A stretch of DNA of 64,000 nucleotides from an uncultured Actinomycetota bacterium (GTDB taxonomy: Bacteria; Actinomycetota; Acidimicrobiia; Spongiisociales; UBA5794), in assembly GCA_963700375.1 (NCBI GenBank), contig CAVOXF010000006.1:348021-412020 (forward strand), read 5' to 3'. Below, piece by piece: positions 11,021 through 30,542 of the stretch; within the stretch, counting starts at the first letter, position 1, and each line of letters opens with the position of its first letter. Made by a program: the position numbers and the translations under genes. The notes below the pieces were generated by a model. The model was not told the DNA's origin, ran no database searches, and was given only the letters and a program-made list of their open reading frames with translations.

Positions 11021-11095
11021 TGGCTGGGGGGACAGGACTCGAACCCGTACTGGATGGACCAAAACCACCTGTGCTGCCAGTTACACCACCCCCCA
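11021..11095 (-). tRNA. tRNA-Gln (anticodon UUG)
   Basis: It folds as a cloverleaf by hand. The acceptor stem is UGGGGGG/CCCCCCA. The anticodon stem is GGUGG/CCAUC and the loop UUUUGGU gives anticodon UUG. The T-loop is TTCGAGT and CCA is encoded. Confidence 0.85.
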
Positions 11096-13672: not shown

Positions 13673-15334
13673 TCACTCGTCTTCGTCGAAGGGCTCCATC
13701 TTGGTGTAGAGCGGTCCCAACTCACCGAGTCGTGTCCCTGCCGGTACCGACGGCCGTACCCACGTCGGGCCGTACTCACCGAGTTCGACGGAAAGCGCCT
13801 CGAGCAGTTGCACCGAGGTGAACGGCAGGTACGGGTACAAGGCTACCGCGATCCCTGCAACGGCTTCGATGGCAACGGAGAGGGTCGTCCCGGTCCGGAC
13901 GAGGTCGGTCTTCGCCGTCTTCCACGGCTCACGGTCGTTGAGATAGACGTTCACGGTCTGCGCACCGGCCATCGCTCGCTGGAGACCGCTCCGGAGTCGC
14001 ACTTCGGAGATCTGACCGCCGACCTCGGCGAGCGTCGCGTCGACGGAGGCGAGCAACGCCTCGTCCTCGGCGTCGAGATCCACCGTTTCCTGGATCACAC
14101 CGTCGAAGTAGCGTCCGGTCATGGCCACCACGCGGTTGACGAGGTTGCCCCAGGTCGCGACCAGTTCGTCGTTCACACGACGAATCATGCCCTCGTCGGA
14201 GATGTCGGTGTCGTTGGTCTCGGGGAAGCTGATGGCGACGGCATAGCGAAGCGCGTCCGGCTCGAAGTGATCGATGTACCACGAGATCGAACGCCCGACG
14301 CCACGGCTCGCAGACCCCTTCTCTCCCCGGAAGGTGATGAATTGATTGGCCGGCACATCGGTCGGAAGGTTCAACCCACCGTATCCGAGCAGCAACGCCG
14401 GCCAGTACACGGCATGGAACGGGATGTTGTCCTTGCCGATGAAGTAGTAGCTCTCGGCGTCCGGGTTTTCCCACCAGTCTCGCCACGCTTCCGGCTCGCC
14501 GCGAAGCCGAGCCCACTCCTTGGTCGCCGAGAGGTACCCCATGACGGCTTCCCACCACACGTAGATCGACTTGCCGTCGCCGAGGTCGTCCACCGGCAGC
14601 GGGACCCCCCACTCGAGGTCCCGGGTGAACGCCCGATCGTGCAGTCCGTCGTCGACCATCCCGATCGCGAAGTTGATGACATGGGGCCGCCATCCCTCCC
14701 GGGTGCGAAGCCATTCGAGGAGCGGTTCCTGGAATTCCGAGAGCTTCCAGTAGAAGTGCTCGGTCTCGTGGAGCACCGGCACGGTCGTTGACAACTTGGA
14801 TCGGGGATCGATGAGGTCGATCGGGTCGAGCGTCCGGCCGCAATCGTCGCACTGGTCGCCTCGAGCATCACCGTATCCGCAGTGGGGACAGGTTCCTTCG
14901 ACATACCGATCGGGTAGGAAACGGCCGACCTCCTCATCGAAGAACTGCTCGGTGGTCTTGCGATAGAGGTAGCCGTTCTCGAGCAACCTCATGAAGAAGT
15001 CTTGAGCGACCTCGCGGTGAGTGTCGGTCCCCGTTGTGGTGTACAGGTCGTAGGTGAAGCCGAGGTCTTTCCAGTTCTGGGCGATCTCGCTGTGGTAGCG
15101 GTCGACGATCTCGGCGGGACTGACGCCCTCGTCATCCGCCCGTACGGTGATCGGTGTGCCGTGAACATCGCTGCCGGAGACCATGAGGACATGGTTGCCG
15201 ATGGCCCGCTGGTAGCGAGCGAACACGTCGGGAGGGAGGTAGGCGCCACCGAGGTGGCCGAGGTGGCGTGAACCACTGGCGTACGGCCATGCAACGGCAA
15301 CGAGAACGTTCTTCGGTGGTTGGGTGTCAATCAC
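13673..15334 (-). CDS. metG: Methionyl-tRNA synthetase
   Basis: It is a class I aaRS (PYASGSRHLGH HIGH motif; KMSKS-like region). The start is probably the GTG at 15334 (VIDTQPPKNVLV). The ORF is open up to 15457. Confidence 0.85.
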   Translation of the reverse strand: MIDTQPPKNVLVAVAWPYASGSRHLGHLGGAYLPPDVFARYQRAIGNHVLMVSGSDVHGTPITVRADDEGVSPAEIVDRYHSEIAQNWKDLGFTYDLYTTTGTDTHREVAQDFFMRLLENGYLYRKTTEQFFDEEVGRFLPDRYVEGTCPHCGYGDARGDQCDDCGRTLDPIDLIDPRSKLSTTVPVLHETEHFYWKLSEFQEPLLEWLRTREGWRPHVINFAIGMVDDGLHDRAFTRDLEWGVPLPVDDLGDGKSIYVWWEAVMGYLSATKEWARLRGEPEAWRDWWENPDAESYYFIGKDNIPFHAVYWPALLLGYGGLNLPTDVPANQFITFRGEKGSASRGVGRSISWYIDHFEPDALRYAVAISFPETNDTDISDEGMIRRVNDELVATWGNLVNRVVAMTGRYFDGVIQETVDLDAEDEALLASVDATLAEVGGQISEVRLRSGLQRAMAGAQTVNVYLNDREPWKTAKTDLVRTGTTLSVAIEAVAGIAVALYPYLPFTSVQLLEALSVELGEYGPTWVRPSVPAGTRLGELGPLYTKMEPFDEDE

Positions 15335-15459
15335 GGTGGTGCGATGGTAGCGGTGTGGCCCGATCTGGGGCGCGGAGCGAACGCCCAATCCGGCACGGTC
15401 CACCGGTACAATCGCCTCAGGAAGACTGATCGGCTCCGACCGTTGATGGAGGTTCACCG

Positions 15460-15699
15460 TTGGATACCGTGATGGTTCGCAAAATCGACGACCTCGGACG
15501 CATCGTGGTGCCGGCGGAGACGCGACGTCTCTTCAACATCCATGAAGGGGACGAACTCGAGATCGGTGTTGAGAACGACGCGATCGTGATTCGCAAACTC
15601 GAGGCGACCTGCGTGTTCTGCGGTTCGGCCGAGAACATCGTGGCGTTCAAGGGTCGCGGCGTGTGTTCGGAATGCCGCCGCTCCCTGACCGCCGACTAG
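15460..15699 (+). CDS. AbrB/MazE/SpoVT-type DNA-binding domain protein with a C-terminal CxxC...CxxC zinc ribbon
   Basis: It has VRKIDDLGRIVVPAETRRLFNIHEGDELEI (a swapped-hairpin AbrB domain) followed by CVFCGS...CSEC. A GGAGG sequence lies 9 nt upstream of the TTG start. An alternative ATG at 15471 would give MVRKIDD. Confidence 0.6.
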   Translation: MDTVMVRKIDDLGRIVVPAETRRLFNIHEGDELEIGVENDAIVIRKLEATCVFCGSAENIVAFKGRGVCSECRRSLTAD

Positions 15700-16528
15700 C
15701 GGCCCTGGATTCGAGCGCCGCTTCGTAGAGCGCACGGCGTGACACTCCAGTCTCGGCTGCGACGTCGCGTGCCGCATTCGAGAGTCGCTCCCCCGCCGAC
15801 ATGCGGTCTTCCAGCAGCATCAGGGCGGCCGCGAGGTCCGGAGGTTCTTCCGCCTTCCCCTCCACCACCAGGGTGAACTCGCCACGCGGCTCGACGTCAG
15901 AGGTCCAATGATGGACGGCCTCTTCGAGCGTCCCGGTCCAGATCTCCTCGTGGAGTTTCGTGATCTCTCTGGCAACCACGACGATCCTGCCGGGGCCCGC
16001 TCGCGCTGCCAGAGCGCTGAGATCCTTCACCACGCGGCTCGGGGCTGAGAAGAGGACAACCGGTCGCTCATCAGCCGCGACCACGGCGATGCGCCGCTCC
16101 CGATCCTCCCCGCCGCGCGGTAGGAAGCCCTCGAAGACGAACCGGTCGCCGCCGAGGCCGGCGACCGCGATAGCCGCGGTGACGGCACTCGGACCGGGAA
16201 CGACGGAGACAACAGCGCCAACAGATCGCGCGGCGCGTACCGCGGCGACGCCGGGGTCCGATACGGCCGGCATCCCGGCATCGGTGACGAGGGCGATCGT
16301 CCTTCCCTCTTCGAGCAACGACCGGATCTCGATCGAACGCTCCTGCTCATTGCCGACGAAGAACGATCTCATCTCAGCTTCGACGCCCAGTCGTTCGAGG
16401 AGCTTGCCGGTTCGACGCGTGTCCTCGGCGAACACAACCGAAGCGTCCGCGAGCGTCTGTTTGAGGCGCGGCGAAGCGTCGTCGAGGTTCCCGATCGGGG
16501 TGGCGCAGACAACAAGGCGGCCGGTCAT
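15647..16528 (-). CDS. rsmI: 16S rRNA 2'-O-ribose C1402 methyltransferase (tetrapyrrole methylase family)
   Basis: Its N-terminus is MTGRLVVCATPIGNLDDAS followed by SAVTAAIAVAGL. The start at 16528 overlaps the stop of the upstream DUF192 ORF with ATGA. Its 3' end overlaps the convergent AbrB-like ORF by about 53 nt. Confidence 0.85.
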   Translation of the reverse strand: MTGRLVVCATPIGNLDDASPRLKQTLADASVVFAEDTRRTGKLLERLGVEAEMRSFFVGNEQERSIEIRSLLEEGRTIALVTDAGMPAVSDPGVAAVRAARSVGAVVSVVPGPSAVTAAIAVAGLGGDRFVFEGFLPRGGEDRERRIAVVAADERPVVLFSAPSRVVKDLSALAARAGPGRIVVVAREITKLHEEIWTGTLEEAVHHWTSDVEPRGEFTLVVEGKAEEPPDLAAALMLLEDRMSAGERLSNAARDVAAETGVSRRALYEAALESRAASRRSGSGGIPNTRRDP

Positions 16529-16860
16529 TCGTCTGGAGATGGTAGGACGATGAGCGATGCCCCGGTGTCCGGTCCGCGTTCGACGATGGGCAACTCGAGG
16601 ATCCAGTCGCCGCGCGATGTGACGCGACGGCCGGGCATGAGGATGTCCTGGTGGACCACCGATCCGTCGCGGTCCAAGTGAACGATGCGGAGAGGACCCA
16701 CCCGGCCTCTCGAATACACCGAACCGGCACGCAGCAGCAGACCGCCCCCTGGATTGGCGCGGATCCCGACCAGTCGACCGGTGAACGACGTCGCAACGAC
16801 GACAGGCGGCGATCGCCAGGATCCCGCCGCCACAGTCACCAACCGCCCGGACCGGTACAC
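16525..16860 (-). CDS. DUF192/UPF0127 family protein
   Basis: The PLRIVHLDRDGSVVHQDILMPG...WILELPIVERG region matches the DUF192 pattern (PLDiiFld.dGrVv...yvLEl.aG). GC3 in the core is about 80%. A GTG start at 16860 is chosen. The longer form (to 17043) would overlap the bL37-like ORF on the opposite strand. Confidence 0.5.
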   Translation of the reverse strand: MYRSGRLVTVAAGSWRSPPVVVATSFTGRLVGIRANPGGGLLLRAGSVYSRGRVGPLRIVHLDRDGSVVHQDILMPGRRVTSRGDWILELPIVERGPDTGASLIVLPSPDE

Positions 16861-16888
16861 GCCATGCCCTGGTACGCTGCCGCCCACT

Positions 16889-16972
16889 ATGGCAAAGGCA
16901 AAGCGACGCAAGCTCCGCGCTCGCCGCAGCAAGGCGAACCACGGCCGCAAGCCGAACGCCGGCCGCGGCTGA
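16889..16972 (+). CDS. Candidate ribosomal micro-protein bL37-like (27 aa, highly basic)
   Basis: The ORF encodes MAKAKRRKLRARRSKANHGRKPNAGRG with GC3 of about 85%. It resembles the about-24-aa actinobacterial bL37 peptide, which I recall as MAK(R/G)..KK(R)DRKHSKANHGKRPNA. It is not in the ORF track as a separate ORF because it is embedded in the 95-aa ORF 16685..16972. Confidence 0.45.
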   Translation: MAKAKRRKLRARRSKANHGRKPNAGRG

Positions 16973-17126
16973 CCACAACCAGCCGTCCTCCGCTTCGATC
17001 CCCCGAACCGGCCCCGGTGCCTTTCGCGCGTCATGATTGACACCGTAGGGAGTCCCTCAACGCCGGGATAGAGGGTCGCCAGTCGTTAGTCGCCCGGACG
17101 ATGAGGTCTGGAGCGACGGTGTCCGC

Positions 17127-18509
17127 TCAGATCCCCAGTTGCCGTCTGATCTCTTCGCCGGCTGCTTTGTCGGTGGAGGCGATCCAGTAGATGCCGTCGT
17201 CGATCCGGTCGAGGAACGAGTAGACATCGCCCTGGCGGTACAAGAGACCTCCTGCCGACTCCTCCGCCGGTCCGGCATCCATGTCGTCGCGGATGTGCGC
17301 AATGAGCGCGTTGGCGAGTTCTTCGGCGTCCCGCTCGGAATCCCCGACGTATGACATCACCATCGCAAGGTCATCGCCCCGGGTGAACACCCGATAGACG
17401 TCGTTCCCCCACCCCGCCGCCGCCTGCGTGATCTCTCCCGGAGAGCCCGCACCGTCGAGAACGAGACGAAGACCCCACTCTCCGAACGTCGCCTCGTCGT
17501 AGAGATCCCAACCGTCCAACTCGACGGTGAGCGGAGCGAGGTCGCGAGGAAGTTCGTTGCGGGTATAGCGCGCCGGGTCAAGGATCTGCTCAGTGGTCTG
17601 TGGAGGGCTCTGGTACGCCTCATCGACCGCGGCAAGTCCCCCGGTTGAGGAGAGAGCGTCCACGAACACGAGGCCCTGGTCGTAGGGGAAGGTGAGATCT
17701 GCCTGGATCCAGCCCGGGACCGAATCGAGGACCGACGAATCGTACGACAGCGCTTCGGTTGCCGCTTGGACCGCCTCGGCCGGACTCATCCCCTCCATGT
17801 AGACGAACTGCGACCGAGTGGCATCACCCTCGATGAGCGCCTGGAACGCCGAAAGATCGTCACCGTTGCCACCGTCGATGAGCAGCTCGAAGCCGTCGTT
17901 GAAATCGAAGTGCTGGTCGGTGAGGGCGTGCACGAGCTCATGGAGGACCGTGATCTGCTGAAGTGGAGTGAAGCCATCCGGGGCGGCGGGCACGACCATC
18001 TCCTCGGCATCGCCGTCATAGAAGCCTGCGACTTGTTCGGTGTAGAGATCGATCAGCAGCTTGTAGAGGTCGGTTCCGGGTTCGAGCATTCCGAGCATGG
18101 AGAAGAAGTCACTGTCGACGGCGAGTTCCTCTTGATCCAGATCGTCCGCCACCACGTCCGACACGCGCTGTGAGAACTCGGCAGCGTCCAGGATGACGAC
18201 CGTCGGCGTTGCGATGAACGGCAAACCTCGCACCTGTTCGGCCTCGACCATCAAGGCTGCCAACTCCGACCGCATCTCTTCGACGACGGCGGGATCGATC
18301 GACTCCGAAGCCGTTCCCGGCACGGAAATGGTGGTCTGCGGGATCGACGTCGCCGTGGTGGTCGTGGAGTCGTCTGCGGCTTCGATCGTGGTCGTAGGTT
18401 CGCCGGCGGTGGTCGATATCGGGTCCGCATCGGGGCTGCAGGCGGACGCGATCAGGCTGAGGACGACGACGAGTCCCAGCAGCAGTCGGGAGCTGTATAT
18501 GCGGTGCAC
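17127..18509 (-). CDS. Secreted lipoprotein with HExxH zinc-metallopeptidase motif
   Basis: It has a signal peptide plus lipobox (LSLIASAC), a T/S-rich linker and a VLHELVHAL HExxH motif. The family is unassigned. Confidence 0.65.
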   Translation of the reverse strand: MHRIYSSRLLLGLVVVLSLIASACSPDADPISTTAGEPTTTIEAADDSTTTTATSIPQTTISVPGTASESIDPAVVEEMRSELAALMVEAEQVRGLPFIATPTVVILDAAEFSQRVSDVVADDLDQEELAVDSDFFSMLGMLEPGTDLYKLLIDLYTEQVAGFYDGDAEEMVVPAAPDGFTPLQQITVLHELVHALTDQHFDFNDGFELLIDGGNGDDLSAFQALIEGDATRSQFVYMEGMSPAEAVQAATEALSYDSSVLDSVPGWIQADLTFPYDQGLVFVDALSSTGGLAAVDEAYQSPPQTTEQILDPARYTRNELPRDLAPLTVELDGWDLYDEATFGEWGLRLVLDGAGSPGEITQAAAGWGNDVYRVFTRGDDLAMVMSYVGDSERDAEELANALIAHIRDDMDAGPAEESAGGLLYRQGDVYSFLDRIDDGIYWIASTDKAAGEEIRRQLGI

Positions 18510-18547
18510 GGCCGAGAGGCTACCGCTCCCTCCGCCAAACGCGGGGC

Positions 18548-19780
18548 TCAGCCCTCCTTGATCTTGTCGCCCTTGCCGATTACGACGAGTCCGGTTTCGG
18601 TGACGGTGAATCGTTCGCGGTCGGCAGCCTCGTCGACACCGATCTGGAATCCCTCCGGGATCACTACGTTCTTGTCGATGATCGCCCGGCGAACGACCGC
18701 GCCGCGGCCGATGACGACGCCGTGAAGGATCAGCGAATCCTCGACCGTCGCGTACGAATGCAGCCGCACGTCCGAGGAGATGATCGACCGGCGCGCCGTG
18801 CCGCCGGAGATCACGACGCCGGCACCGACGATCGACTCATACGCCGCGCCACGCCGATCGTCGAGGTCGAATACGAGCTTGGCGGGAGGAAGCGGCGGGC
18901 GGTGCGTCAGGATCGGCCACTTCTTGTTGTAGTACGAGAAGATCGGATCGACCCTGATCGTGTCCATGTTCGCCTGGAAGTACGCATCGAGCGTCCCCAC
19001 GTCACGCCAGTAGCCATGCTCTCTCTCGGTCTGGCCGGGCACGATGTTCTCGTTGAAGTCGTAGACACAGGCGGTGCCCTGCTCCACGAACGCCGGGATG
19101 ATGTTCCCGCCCATGTCGTGTTTCGACTCGTCGTTCTCGGCGTCGCCTTTGATGACTCTCCGAAGGGCCTTGGTCTCGAATACGTAGTTGCCCATCGACG
19201 CGAAAGCCCATTCCGGCTCACCGGGGATCGGCTTGGGATGCTCAGGCTTCTCGATGAACGAGACGATCTTGCCGTGCTCGTCAGCCTCGATGATCCCGAA
19301 ATCGGAGGCCTGATCGATCGGGACCCGAATCCCGGCGACCGTCGCAGAAGCACCGGACTCCACGTGTTGATTGACCATTTGACGCGGGTCCATCCGGTAG
19401 ATGTGATCGGCGCCGAACACGATTACATGATCCGGTTGCTCGTCGGTGAGGATGTTGAAGTTCTGGTAGATGGCATCCGCCGAACCGGAGAACCAGTGGG
19501 GGCCGCGTCGCATCTGCGCGGGAACGGGCGTCACATAGTTGCCGAGCATGTTGCTCATCGACCAACCGAGTGCAAGGTGCCGGTCGAGGCTGTGGCTCTT
19601 GTACTGAGTCAGAACGGCGATCTTCCGGTAGCCGCCGTTGACGAGATTGGAGAGGACGAAGTCGATCAGCCGGTAGATCCCGCCGAATGGAACTGCGGGT
19701 TTCGATCGATCCCGTGTGAGCGGCCAGAGCCGTTTTCCCTCACCACCTGCGAGGACGAGCGCGATGACCTTTGGTTCCAT
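18548..19780 (-). CDS. glgC: Glucose-1-phosphate adenylyltransferase
   Basis: It has the N-terminal nucleotidyltransferase motif [13 protein letters not shown] and C-terminal hexapeptide repeats. The start is at the internal ATG (MEPKVIAL), giving about 410 aa. Confidence 0.9.
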
Positions 19781-30465: not shown

Positions 30466-30542
30466 TGGTGGAGGTGAGGGGATTTGAACCCCTGACCCCT
30501 ACGTTGCGAACGTAGTGCTCTGCCGAACTGAGCTACACCCCC
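30466..30542 (-). tRNA. tRNA-Ala (anticodon CGC)
   Basis: It folds as a cloverleaf by hand with a G3:U70 identity pair. The anticodon loop is UUCGCAA and the T-loop is TTCAAAT. CCA is encoded. Confidence 0.85.

Follow-up and report, generated by a model that had tools for sequence, protein, structure and literature searches.

The DNA analyzed here is a 64-kb window (a stretch of 64,000 nucleotides of contig CAVOXF010000006.1) from an uncultured bacterium of the class Acidimicrobiia. Its plus strand carries a 27-codon open reading frame (ORF) for a basic micro-protein that appears to be a divergent form of the 50S ribosomal protein bL37. The ORF starts with an ATG at 16889 and ends with a TGA at 16970-16972. 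Its G+C content at third codon positions (GC3) is 0.85, and its product contains five Lys, seven Arg, one His and no Asp or Glu, with a charge of +12. These values agree with an earlier note made from the sequence alone, which had described a 27-amino acid (aa) ORF with GC3 of about 85%. Of the coordinates given there, 16860-16972, the first is the position of a minus-strand GTG and not the peptide start, which is at 16889. The complement of the peptide gene was correctly placed within a minus-strand ORF (16525..17043), which reads ...QPRPAFGLRPWFALLRRARSLRRFAFAIV..., and the third codon positions of the two ORFs fall on the same coordinate residue modulo 3, i.e. the frames share their wobble positions as had been stated. 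The minus-strand gene, called DUF192-like below, precedes rsmI on that strand (Table 1).

Relatives were sought by a scan of one genome per species, which yielded at least 167 of them. From these, 80 loci were fetched, nearly all from metagenome-assembled genomes (MAGs) of Acidimicrobiia, and the comparison covered the 64-kb window and these loci of 6 kb each. The loci are kin to one another, and locus counts thus overstate the number of independent observations. The peptide was conserved in at least 80 species-level genomes, with one match per genome and one per 6-kb locus. A protein homolog search with a 40-codon slice (window 16850-16969) as the query returned 32 predicted metagenome proteins of 27-69 aa, all with a near-identical 27-residue core. 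The N-terminal extensions added to this core by gene callers were mutually unrelated, indicating that conservation starts exactly at Met1, and in many loci an in-frame stop was found 2-14 codons upstream of the peptide ATG. Two classes of the peptide were recognized: a MAKAK class, MAKAKRRKLRARR(S/K)KANHGR(K/R)PNAGRG, mostly of 27 aa, and a MSKKT class, MSKKT.KRK..ARR.KANHGRKPNAGRG, of 28 aa, which occurs in Microthrixaceae, Iamiaceae and others.

The Acidimicrobiia peptide is a real protein-coding gene under strong purifying selection. In the 27-aa class (54 Acidimicrobiia loci), 49 distinct 81-nt DNA sequences encoded only eight peptides, and the variable columns (n = 36) fell mostly on codon position 3 (25 columns, against six on position 2 and five on position 1). 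The ratio of nonsynonymous to synonymous differences per site (pN/pS, Nei-Gojobori method) was 0.116 for the peptide frame; the wobble-sharing minus frame gave 0.229 and was interrupted by stops in 4/49 sequences, and the other four frames all exceeded 3. Codon-family switches occurred in the peptide frame for Ser (AGC/TCN), Arg (CGN/AGR) and Leu (CTN/TTG), and the stop codon also varied. Among close relatives, DNA identity was 96% in the peptide ORF (84 nt) versus 64% in the DUF192-like core. The peptide was also present without a DUF192-like neighbor, both in the MSKKT class, where the neighbors differ but the peptide and its -10 box are kept, and at locus L049, where rsmI lies 71 nt from the peptide gene with no DUF192-like gene in between. 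In other lineages, the minus-strand extension over the peptide gene was frame-shifted or stopped and the peptide was untouched. According to the earlier note, codon bias cannot tell which of the two ORFs is coding; the plus-strand peptide is nevertheless favored by switches of codon family, by stops in frame and by lineage-specific frame shifts. It had also named a pattern that would speak against the peptide, namely orthologs that keep the DUF192 extension and not the peptide, and the opposite was seen, with the peptide kept and the minus-strand extension not. The plus-strand peptide appears to be the primary evolutionary constraint on these 84 nt, with the antisense frame staying open as it is carried along. 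A chance ORF in GC-rich DNA was rejected as an account of the peptide ORF, and an RNA element was dropped as an explanation because an Rfam scan of 15000-19000 found no RNA family.

Eight loci (L005, L007, L036, L042, L045, L047, L068 and L075) combine the peptide and a synteny typical of Acidimicrobiia with MAG labels from elsewhere (Armatimonadetes, Saprospiraceae, Kiloniellales, Gemmatimonadales, Acidobacteria, Bifidobacteriaceae or Verrucomicrobiales), and were probably mis-binned or mislabelled. At another locus, L033, a frame shift about 120 nt upstream of the peptide ATG breaks the DUF192-like ORF (90 codons, after which the domain resumes in another frame). The DUF192-like gene is a pseudogene there, or else the assembly is in error; L033 has an intact peptide gene.

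Table 1 Features of the peptide locus and of its surroundings in the window.
Feature	Coordinates	Strand	Basis or remark
bL37-like basic micro-protein gene	16889..16972, stop included	+	27 codons, product MAKAKRRKLRARRSKANHGRKPNAGRG
Putative extended -10 element TGG-TACGCT (TGGTACGCT) of the peptide gene	16870..16878	+	Motif, conserved spacing
DUF192-like gene, long form (169 aa)	16525..17034	-	Public calls, leaderless-type start, domain content
DUF192-like core	~16528-16860	-	Coding-type GC by codon position
GTG proposed as short-form start	16858..16860	-	Among 11 close relatives, start codon in the window (GTG) and L003 (TTG) only
-10-like hexamer TACGGT	17042..17047	-	7 nt upstream of minus-strand ATG (first base 17034)
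rsmI (16S rRNA C1402 2'-O-methyltransferase)	15647..16528	-	TIGR00096, E = 2e-62
DUF8575/Hvo_1808-like protein, 460 aa	17127..18509	-	Convergent with the peptide gene; NF038145, E = 3.5e-36, below cut-off
AbrB/MazE-family gene, C-terminal Cys-rich tail	15460..15699	+	TIGR01439, E = 2e-12
tRNA-Gln(TTG)	11021..11095	-	One of only two tRNA genes in the window
tRNA-Ala(CGC)	30466..30542	-	One of only two tRNA genes in the window

Among NCBIfam models, the sole match of the peptide was NF047428 (50S ribosomal protein bL37; E = 0.001). In a phmmer search against 177,635 PDB sequences, the peptide matched bL37 chains alone (5o60_3, 7kgb_v and 8crx_V), which belong to the ribosomes of Mycobacterium smegmatis, M. 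tuberculosis and Cutibacterium acnes, and residues 1-24 aligned to residues 1-24. A profile of 15 Acidimicrobiia peptides retrieved the same chains (8crx_V, E = 4.8e-6; 7kgb_v, E = 1.6e-4; 5o60_3, E = 2.3e-4) and nothing else. On 7kgb_v, the depositors' label "THX" is another name for the bL37 chain. The tblastn check proposed beforehand, with mycobacterial bL37 as the query, was run on the 64-kb window: M. smegmatis bL37 hit the peptide locus best (16889-16960, E = 1.35e-6), and the next-best matches, of E = 0.005 or worse, were Arg-rich noise. The sequence that the earlier note had given for bL37 (24 aa, ending in SKANHGKRPNA) is right, the M. smegmatis chain in PDB 5O60 being MAKRGRKKRDRKHSKANHGKRPNA with 24 aa. 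Its suggestion of a real gene resembling bL37 is upheld by the coding pattern across loci and by PDB and NCBIfam matches to bL37 only. No family was found for the peptide in the local Pfam copy; two homologs carried a precomputed label, PF26427.

The peptide shares with bL37 its size and charge (about 24 aa, strongly basic, without acidic core residues), with three more residues at the C terminus. It aligns with the M. smegmatis protein from Met1 over all 24 residues with 58% identity, M-A-K, S-K-A-N-H-G and P-N being invariant. The alignment is thus full-length and includes the motif (S/G)-K-A-N-H-G-(K/R)2-P-N-(A/S), in which SKANHG..PN is invariant. Like the known bL37 proteins of M. smegmatis, M. 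tuberculosis and C. acnes (NF047428; 5O60 chain 3, 7KGB chain v, 8CRX chain V), it is a tiny and highly basic peptide, its host belongs to the phylum Actinomycetota, and its gene is often unannotated. The homology is well supported, and the peptide appears to be a divergent bL37 ortholog, the Acidimicrobiia version of the family. It differs from the Mycobacterium and Cutibacterium proteins by its length of 27 aa with an invariant GRG, by RK or RR instead of KR after NHG, and by the probable nesting of its gene antisense in another coding sequence; its place in the ribosome is putative. The gene also differs in its surroundings from the M. tuberculosis copy at 3.598 Mb, which is presumably not near rsmI, whereas the peptide gene adjoins rsmI, metG and tatD.

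In M. smegmatis, bL37 (MSMEG_1916) is a protein of 24 aa with an isoelectric point of about 12, is "conserved throughout the Actinobacteria", and lacks annotation in M. tuberculosis (PMC10081302). The bL37 pocket of M. smegmatis and C. acnes is formed by H39, H40, H41/42, H72 and H89, beside the peptidyl-transferase centre (PMC5876184, PMC10085706). By homology with bL37, the peptide would insert into this 23S rRNA pocket (H39-H42/H72/H89) under the 5S rRNA's tip; no Acidimicrobiia ribosome structure was among the PDB matches of the peptide or of its profile. The planctomycetal model NF047429 ("ribo_Plancto_bL37", 32 positions) bears the same NCBI protein name, but the likeness is far weaker than to the actinobacterial model: one Acidimicrobiia variant matched with E = 0.086 and the window peptide gave no match. 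The existence of this model implies that NCBI already recognizes bL37 outside Actinomycetota. In Borreliella burgdorferi, the N-terminal helical extension of uL30 fills the bL37 rRNA pocket (PMC10618245), so the pocket can be filled by different polypeptides, although that extension is part of a larger protein and not a separate gene. The ribosomal proteins bS22, bL36, bTHX and bL38 are likewise very short, very basic and often missed in annotation, but none of them was among the PDB or NCBIfam matches of the peptide; identity with bS22, bL36 or THX was rejected, these matches being to bL37 only.

Upstream of the peptide ATG lies a TGG-TACGCT sequence that looks like an extended -10 element. 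In the window, 10 nt (gccgcccact) separate TACGCT from the ATG, and this spacer is C/T-rich and holds no Shine-Dalgarno (GGAGG) sequence. A TANNNT hexamer ends 6-10 nt before the peptide ATG in 75/77 loci and is preceded by TGN in 55 of the 75; at the two exceptions, L068 and L070, the apparent start is an upstream GTG and not the scored ATG. We searched for TANNNT directly, as actinobacterial promoters lack a -35 consensus, and an E. coli-type promoter and terminator scan of 16400-17300 found nothing. The dominant promoter element of M. tuberculosis is a TANNNT whose centre lies 7-12 bp upstream of the start site, TGN occurs on only 7% of these elements and marks stronger promoters, and a transcript start within 5 bp of the start codon is counted as leaderless (PMC3898074). 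By this definition the motif is of the leaderless type, since TANNNT is placed for a start no more than about 5 nt from the start codon and no Shine-Dalgarno sequence is present. The predicted transcription start, A16886, likely gives a 3-nt and functionally leaderless transcript, and the gene looks like a strongly promoted transcription unit with no leader or one of at most 3 nt. The transcript driven by the extended -10 element (16870-16878) would begin at the peptide ATG or no more than about 3 nt from it, and because of this start the mRNA would be translated without a Shine-Dalgarno sequence. The minus-strand codons over the -10 box (GTA and CCA) are rare and A-ending and never vary in close relatives, suggesting a promoter constraint at the DNA level. 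A conserved intrinsic terminator was sought downstream of the peptide stop, where minimum free energy folds were inconsistent between loci; the conserved block ACGCGTCAT found downstream is the minus-strand start region. An invariant CCGGTAC at 16850..16856 on the plus strand, 33-39 nt upstream of the peptide ATG and thus at a -35 position, is the same in L003-L033, and it encodes an invariant Tyr-Arg on the minus strand; the constraint may be either.

The DUF192-like gene is also a real gene and forms an operon with rsmI. Its core shows coding-type GC by codon position (0.71/0.55/0.75 in 16528-16860), and its product, though fast-evolving, is conserved in about 40 loci. The two genes are assigned to one operon because the rsmI ATG overlaps the DUF192-like stop (ATGA, GAATGACC on the minus strand), with the same 4-nt overlap in the relative L003, and the DUF192-like domain appears to be translationally coupled to rsmI. 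The earlier label "DUF192" fares less well than the gene itself. The window protein had no Pfam match at E <= 10 and did not reach the gathering threshold of PF02643, which matched one of 31 relatives (E = 0.03); 28 homologs carried no precomputed Pfam domain. Solved DUF192 (PF02643) structures include 3PJY and 3M7A; a profile of the DUF192-like family matched no PDB sequence, and the structure model of the window protein was of low confidence (predicted local distance difference test score, pLDDT, 62.5). "DUF192-like", a weakly supported label, is the most that can be said of this gene.

In the long form, residues 22-49 are antisense to the whole peptide gene in the wobble-sharing frame. Many loci have a minus-strand ATG or GTG that follows a TANNNT hexamer by 6-7 nt and is situated 97-166 nt beyond the peptide ATG, past the peptide stop; in the window the corresponding hexamer falls in a 92-nt gap after the upstream minus-strand gene. 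Such a distal leaderless-type start was found in 34/54 MAKAK loci, against 6.9 ± 2.4 in shuffled sequences and about three predicted from the background rate, and it was in the wobble-sharing frame in 30 of the 34. No leaderless-type start was found on the plus strand of the same regions or in the 18 MSKKT-class loci. In 26 loci, the window among them and some outside the building set of the profile, a profile search of long ORFs showed that the distal start opens an ORF of 158-217 codons with the DUF192-like domain in its C-terminal two thirds. Where the domain lies in the wobble-sharing frame, 19/28 loci have a distal start in frame; where it lies in another frame, none of 13 loci has a distal start in the domain's own frame, and the only such start in this group, that of the frameshifted L033, is in the wobble-sharing frame. 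Start positions and hexamers vary from one subclade to another, suggesting that about 8-10 independent lineages keep the long ORF in frame and open. Both promoter-like elements and the long minus-strand ORF are conserved, and public gene callers predict the long form with 169-170 aa.

If the long form is real, the 5' coding region of the operon contains the whole bL37-like gene in antisense orientation. In the lineage of the window, we regard the long form as somewhat more likely real than not; its translation and the transcription start sites are deduced from the conserved elements. The first codon of a leaderless DUF192-like-rsmI operon would be the minus-strand ATG at 17034, and the N-terminal extension would come from the strand opposite the peptide gene, in the wobble-sharing frame. 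Only tentatively do we propose the wider statement that many Acidimicrobiia species have kept a bL37 gene wholly within the translated 5' region, and on the opposite strand, of a leaderless DUF192-like/RsmI operon, such that 84 nt encode two proteins. On this view, the segment encoded antisense (..SLRRFAFAIVGGSVPG..) could even act as a twin-arginine-like export signal. The arrangement resembles known prokaryotic antisense overlapping gene pairs (overprinting) in that opposite-strand ORFs cover the same 84 nt with coinciding third positions, the frame best tolerated for double coding. It differs from them in that one of the two genes is of the housekeeping type, with deep conservation, and in that many species keep the arrangement; translation of the overlapping part of the long ORF is putative. 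At 15 loci (L012, L017, L021, L022, L028, L037, L044-L046, L050, L051, L053, L056, L057 and L060), the peptide start lies in a CATG palindrome that provides an ATG on both strands with a 2-nt overlap, and a minus-strand ATG in the DUF192-like frame begins at the peptide start codon.

Taken as a whole, we regard a bL37-like gene with a leaderless-type start, nested antisense in a DUF192-like-rsmI operon, as quite likely, although several results weigh against it. One is that no leaderless ribosomal-protein gene was found in M. tuberculosis, and such a gene would be atypical (PMC3898074). Others concern the long form: its first 21 codons are weakly constrained (pN/pS 0.65), the pN/pS of the antisense segment differs only marginally between loci with the long form and those without it (0.200 vs 0.248), and the DUF192-like domain is in another frame than the antisense ORF in 13/41 typed loci, where its start must be proximal. 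These results leave room for a model without overlap, which we rather doubt. In this model, the DUF192-like gene would start at the GTG at 16860 or at a better conserved GTG (first base 16887), the genes would lie head-to-head, and the distal minus-strand ATG and -10 would mark a transcription start only or be unrelated. Both gene calls then become compatible, and the GTG at 16887 is conserved in 11/11 close relatives. The first of the two starts, proposed in the earlier note with a 28-nt divergent gap, is probably wrong: the geometry holds (16861-16888 up to the peptide ATG), but the aligned position is a start codon in only 2/11 close relatives (GTG in the window, TTG in L003). No -10 or Shine-Dalgarno signal was found before either proximal start, and the CAC conserved at 16885-16887 may equally stem from the context in which transcription of the peptide gene starts. 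The distal starts also speak against this model, being far more frequent than shuffled or background rates predict and opening, from a -10 at 6-7 nt, in-frame ORFs into the domain in 26 loci of about 8-10 lineages.

A second group of adverse results concerns the assignment to bL37. The peptide scored 19.2 bits against NF047428, under the equivalog cut-off of 30 bits, and all Acidimicrobiia variants tested scored 17-26 bits (best 25.8), compared with 51.8 for M. smegmatis bL37; the invariant C-terminal GRG tail is also additional to the known proteins. It is conceivable, though unlikely, that the peptide is a real conserved basic micro-protein that is not ribosomal, for example one of a nucleic-acid-binding or antimicrobial type, with only the short KANHG-KRPN motif in common with bL37. 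The low score and the tail fit this idea, isolated C. acnes bL37 is antibacterial (PMC10085706), and bL37 is dispensable in the laboratory, its deletion in M. smegmatis being without phenotype (PMC10081302), which implies that the function is loosely defined even for the type members. However, the likeness covers all 24 residues from M1 to A24 in the same length register, with the same basic N-terminal half, and the PDB matches are bL37 chains only. The host clade lies in a phylum that is said to conserve bL37 throughout (PMC10081302; PMC5876184), and a strong-type promoter and apparent single-copy conservation over the whole class fit a housekeeping role. The bL37 assignment is thus preferred over a non-ribosomal peptide. 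As for the current public annotation, by which the long minus-strand ORF is the sole real gene and the 27-codon ORF a by-product of its conserved extension, the predicted 169-170-aa proteins and the near-invariance of QPRPAFGLRPWFALLRRARSLRRFAFAIV in close relatives are in its favor, but it is extremely improbable and already refuted by the comparative data, as the extension is lost, frame-shifted or stopped in many loci with an intact peptide, the Ser, Arg and Leu codon switches keep the plus-strand residue and alter the minus-strand one, the peptide occurs without any DUF192-like neighbor and has its own conserved extended -10 box, and an extension 96% identical next to its own domain at 64% makes little sense.

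The gene order around the peptide is conserved: ksgA-tatD-metG, the AbrB-family gene (+), rsmI (-), the DUF192-like gene (-), the peptide gene (+) and the DUF8575/Hvo_1808-like gene (-). The last of these is a neighbor in most MAKAK-class loci, and its relatives carry a precomputed PF26686 (DUF8575) label. Its product in the window has a lipobox-like LIASAC near the N terminus and a HELVH (HEXXH) motif, and may be a lipoprotein metalloprotease. The AbrB/MazE-family gene and rsmI are convergent and share about 53 nt at the 3' end of rsmI; L003 has this overlap in its gene calls too, and most loci keep the two genes together.

The earlier remark that such genes are usually missing from annotations proved correct here: the exact 27-aa sequence does not occur among the roughly 15 billion predicted proteins of the collection that was searched. 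Public calls at this locus and its relatives are either ORFs of 44-69 aa, over-extended by false N-terminal stretches and named "hypothetical protein", or the antisense ORF of 169 aa, and the peptide gene is left unannotated because gene finders call the longer gene on the opposite strand. The NCBI bL37 model would not name the Acidimicrobiia peptide, as it misses every variant tested. A whole bacterial class is thus without this gene in its annotation, and a lower cut-off or an Acidimicrobiia seed would fix hundreds of genomes. A micro-gene can be hidden from annotation by a longer antisense ORF, as this case shows.

The occurrence of bL37 in Actinobacteria is already known and the family assignment is no surprise. 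New here are the GRG-tailed Acidimicrobiia variant, the leaderless-type extended -10 signal, and the conserved nested antisense arrangement with the DUF192-like-rsmI operon. The finding extends bL37 from Actinomycetes to a deep-branching actinobacterial class and defines the truly invariant residues of the protein (M1, R7, K8, R12, R13, ANHG, P, N and A). The lineage-specific GRG tail is useful for structural work on the pocket beside the peptidyl-transferase centre. If the long form is translated, the locus holds an opposite-strand overlapping gene pair of a kind that is rare in bacteria, and one that has persisted phylogenetically. If true, the full overlap of the two transcripts would couple the expression of a large-subunit protein with that of a small-subunit rRNA modifier via transcriptional interference or RNA pairing.

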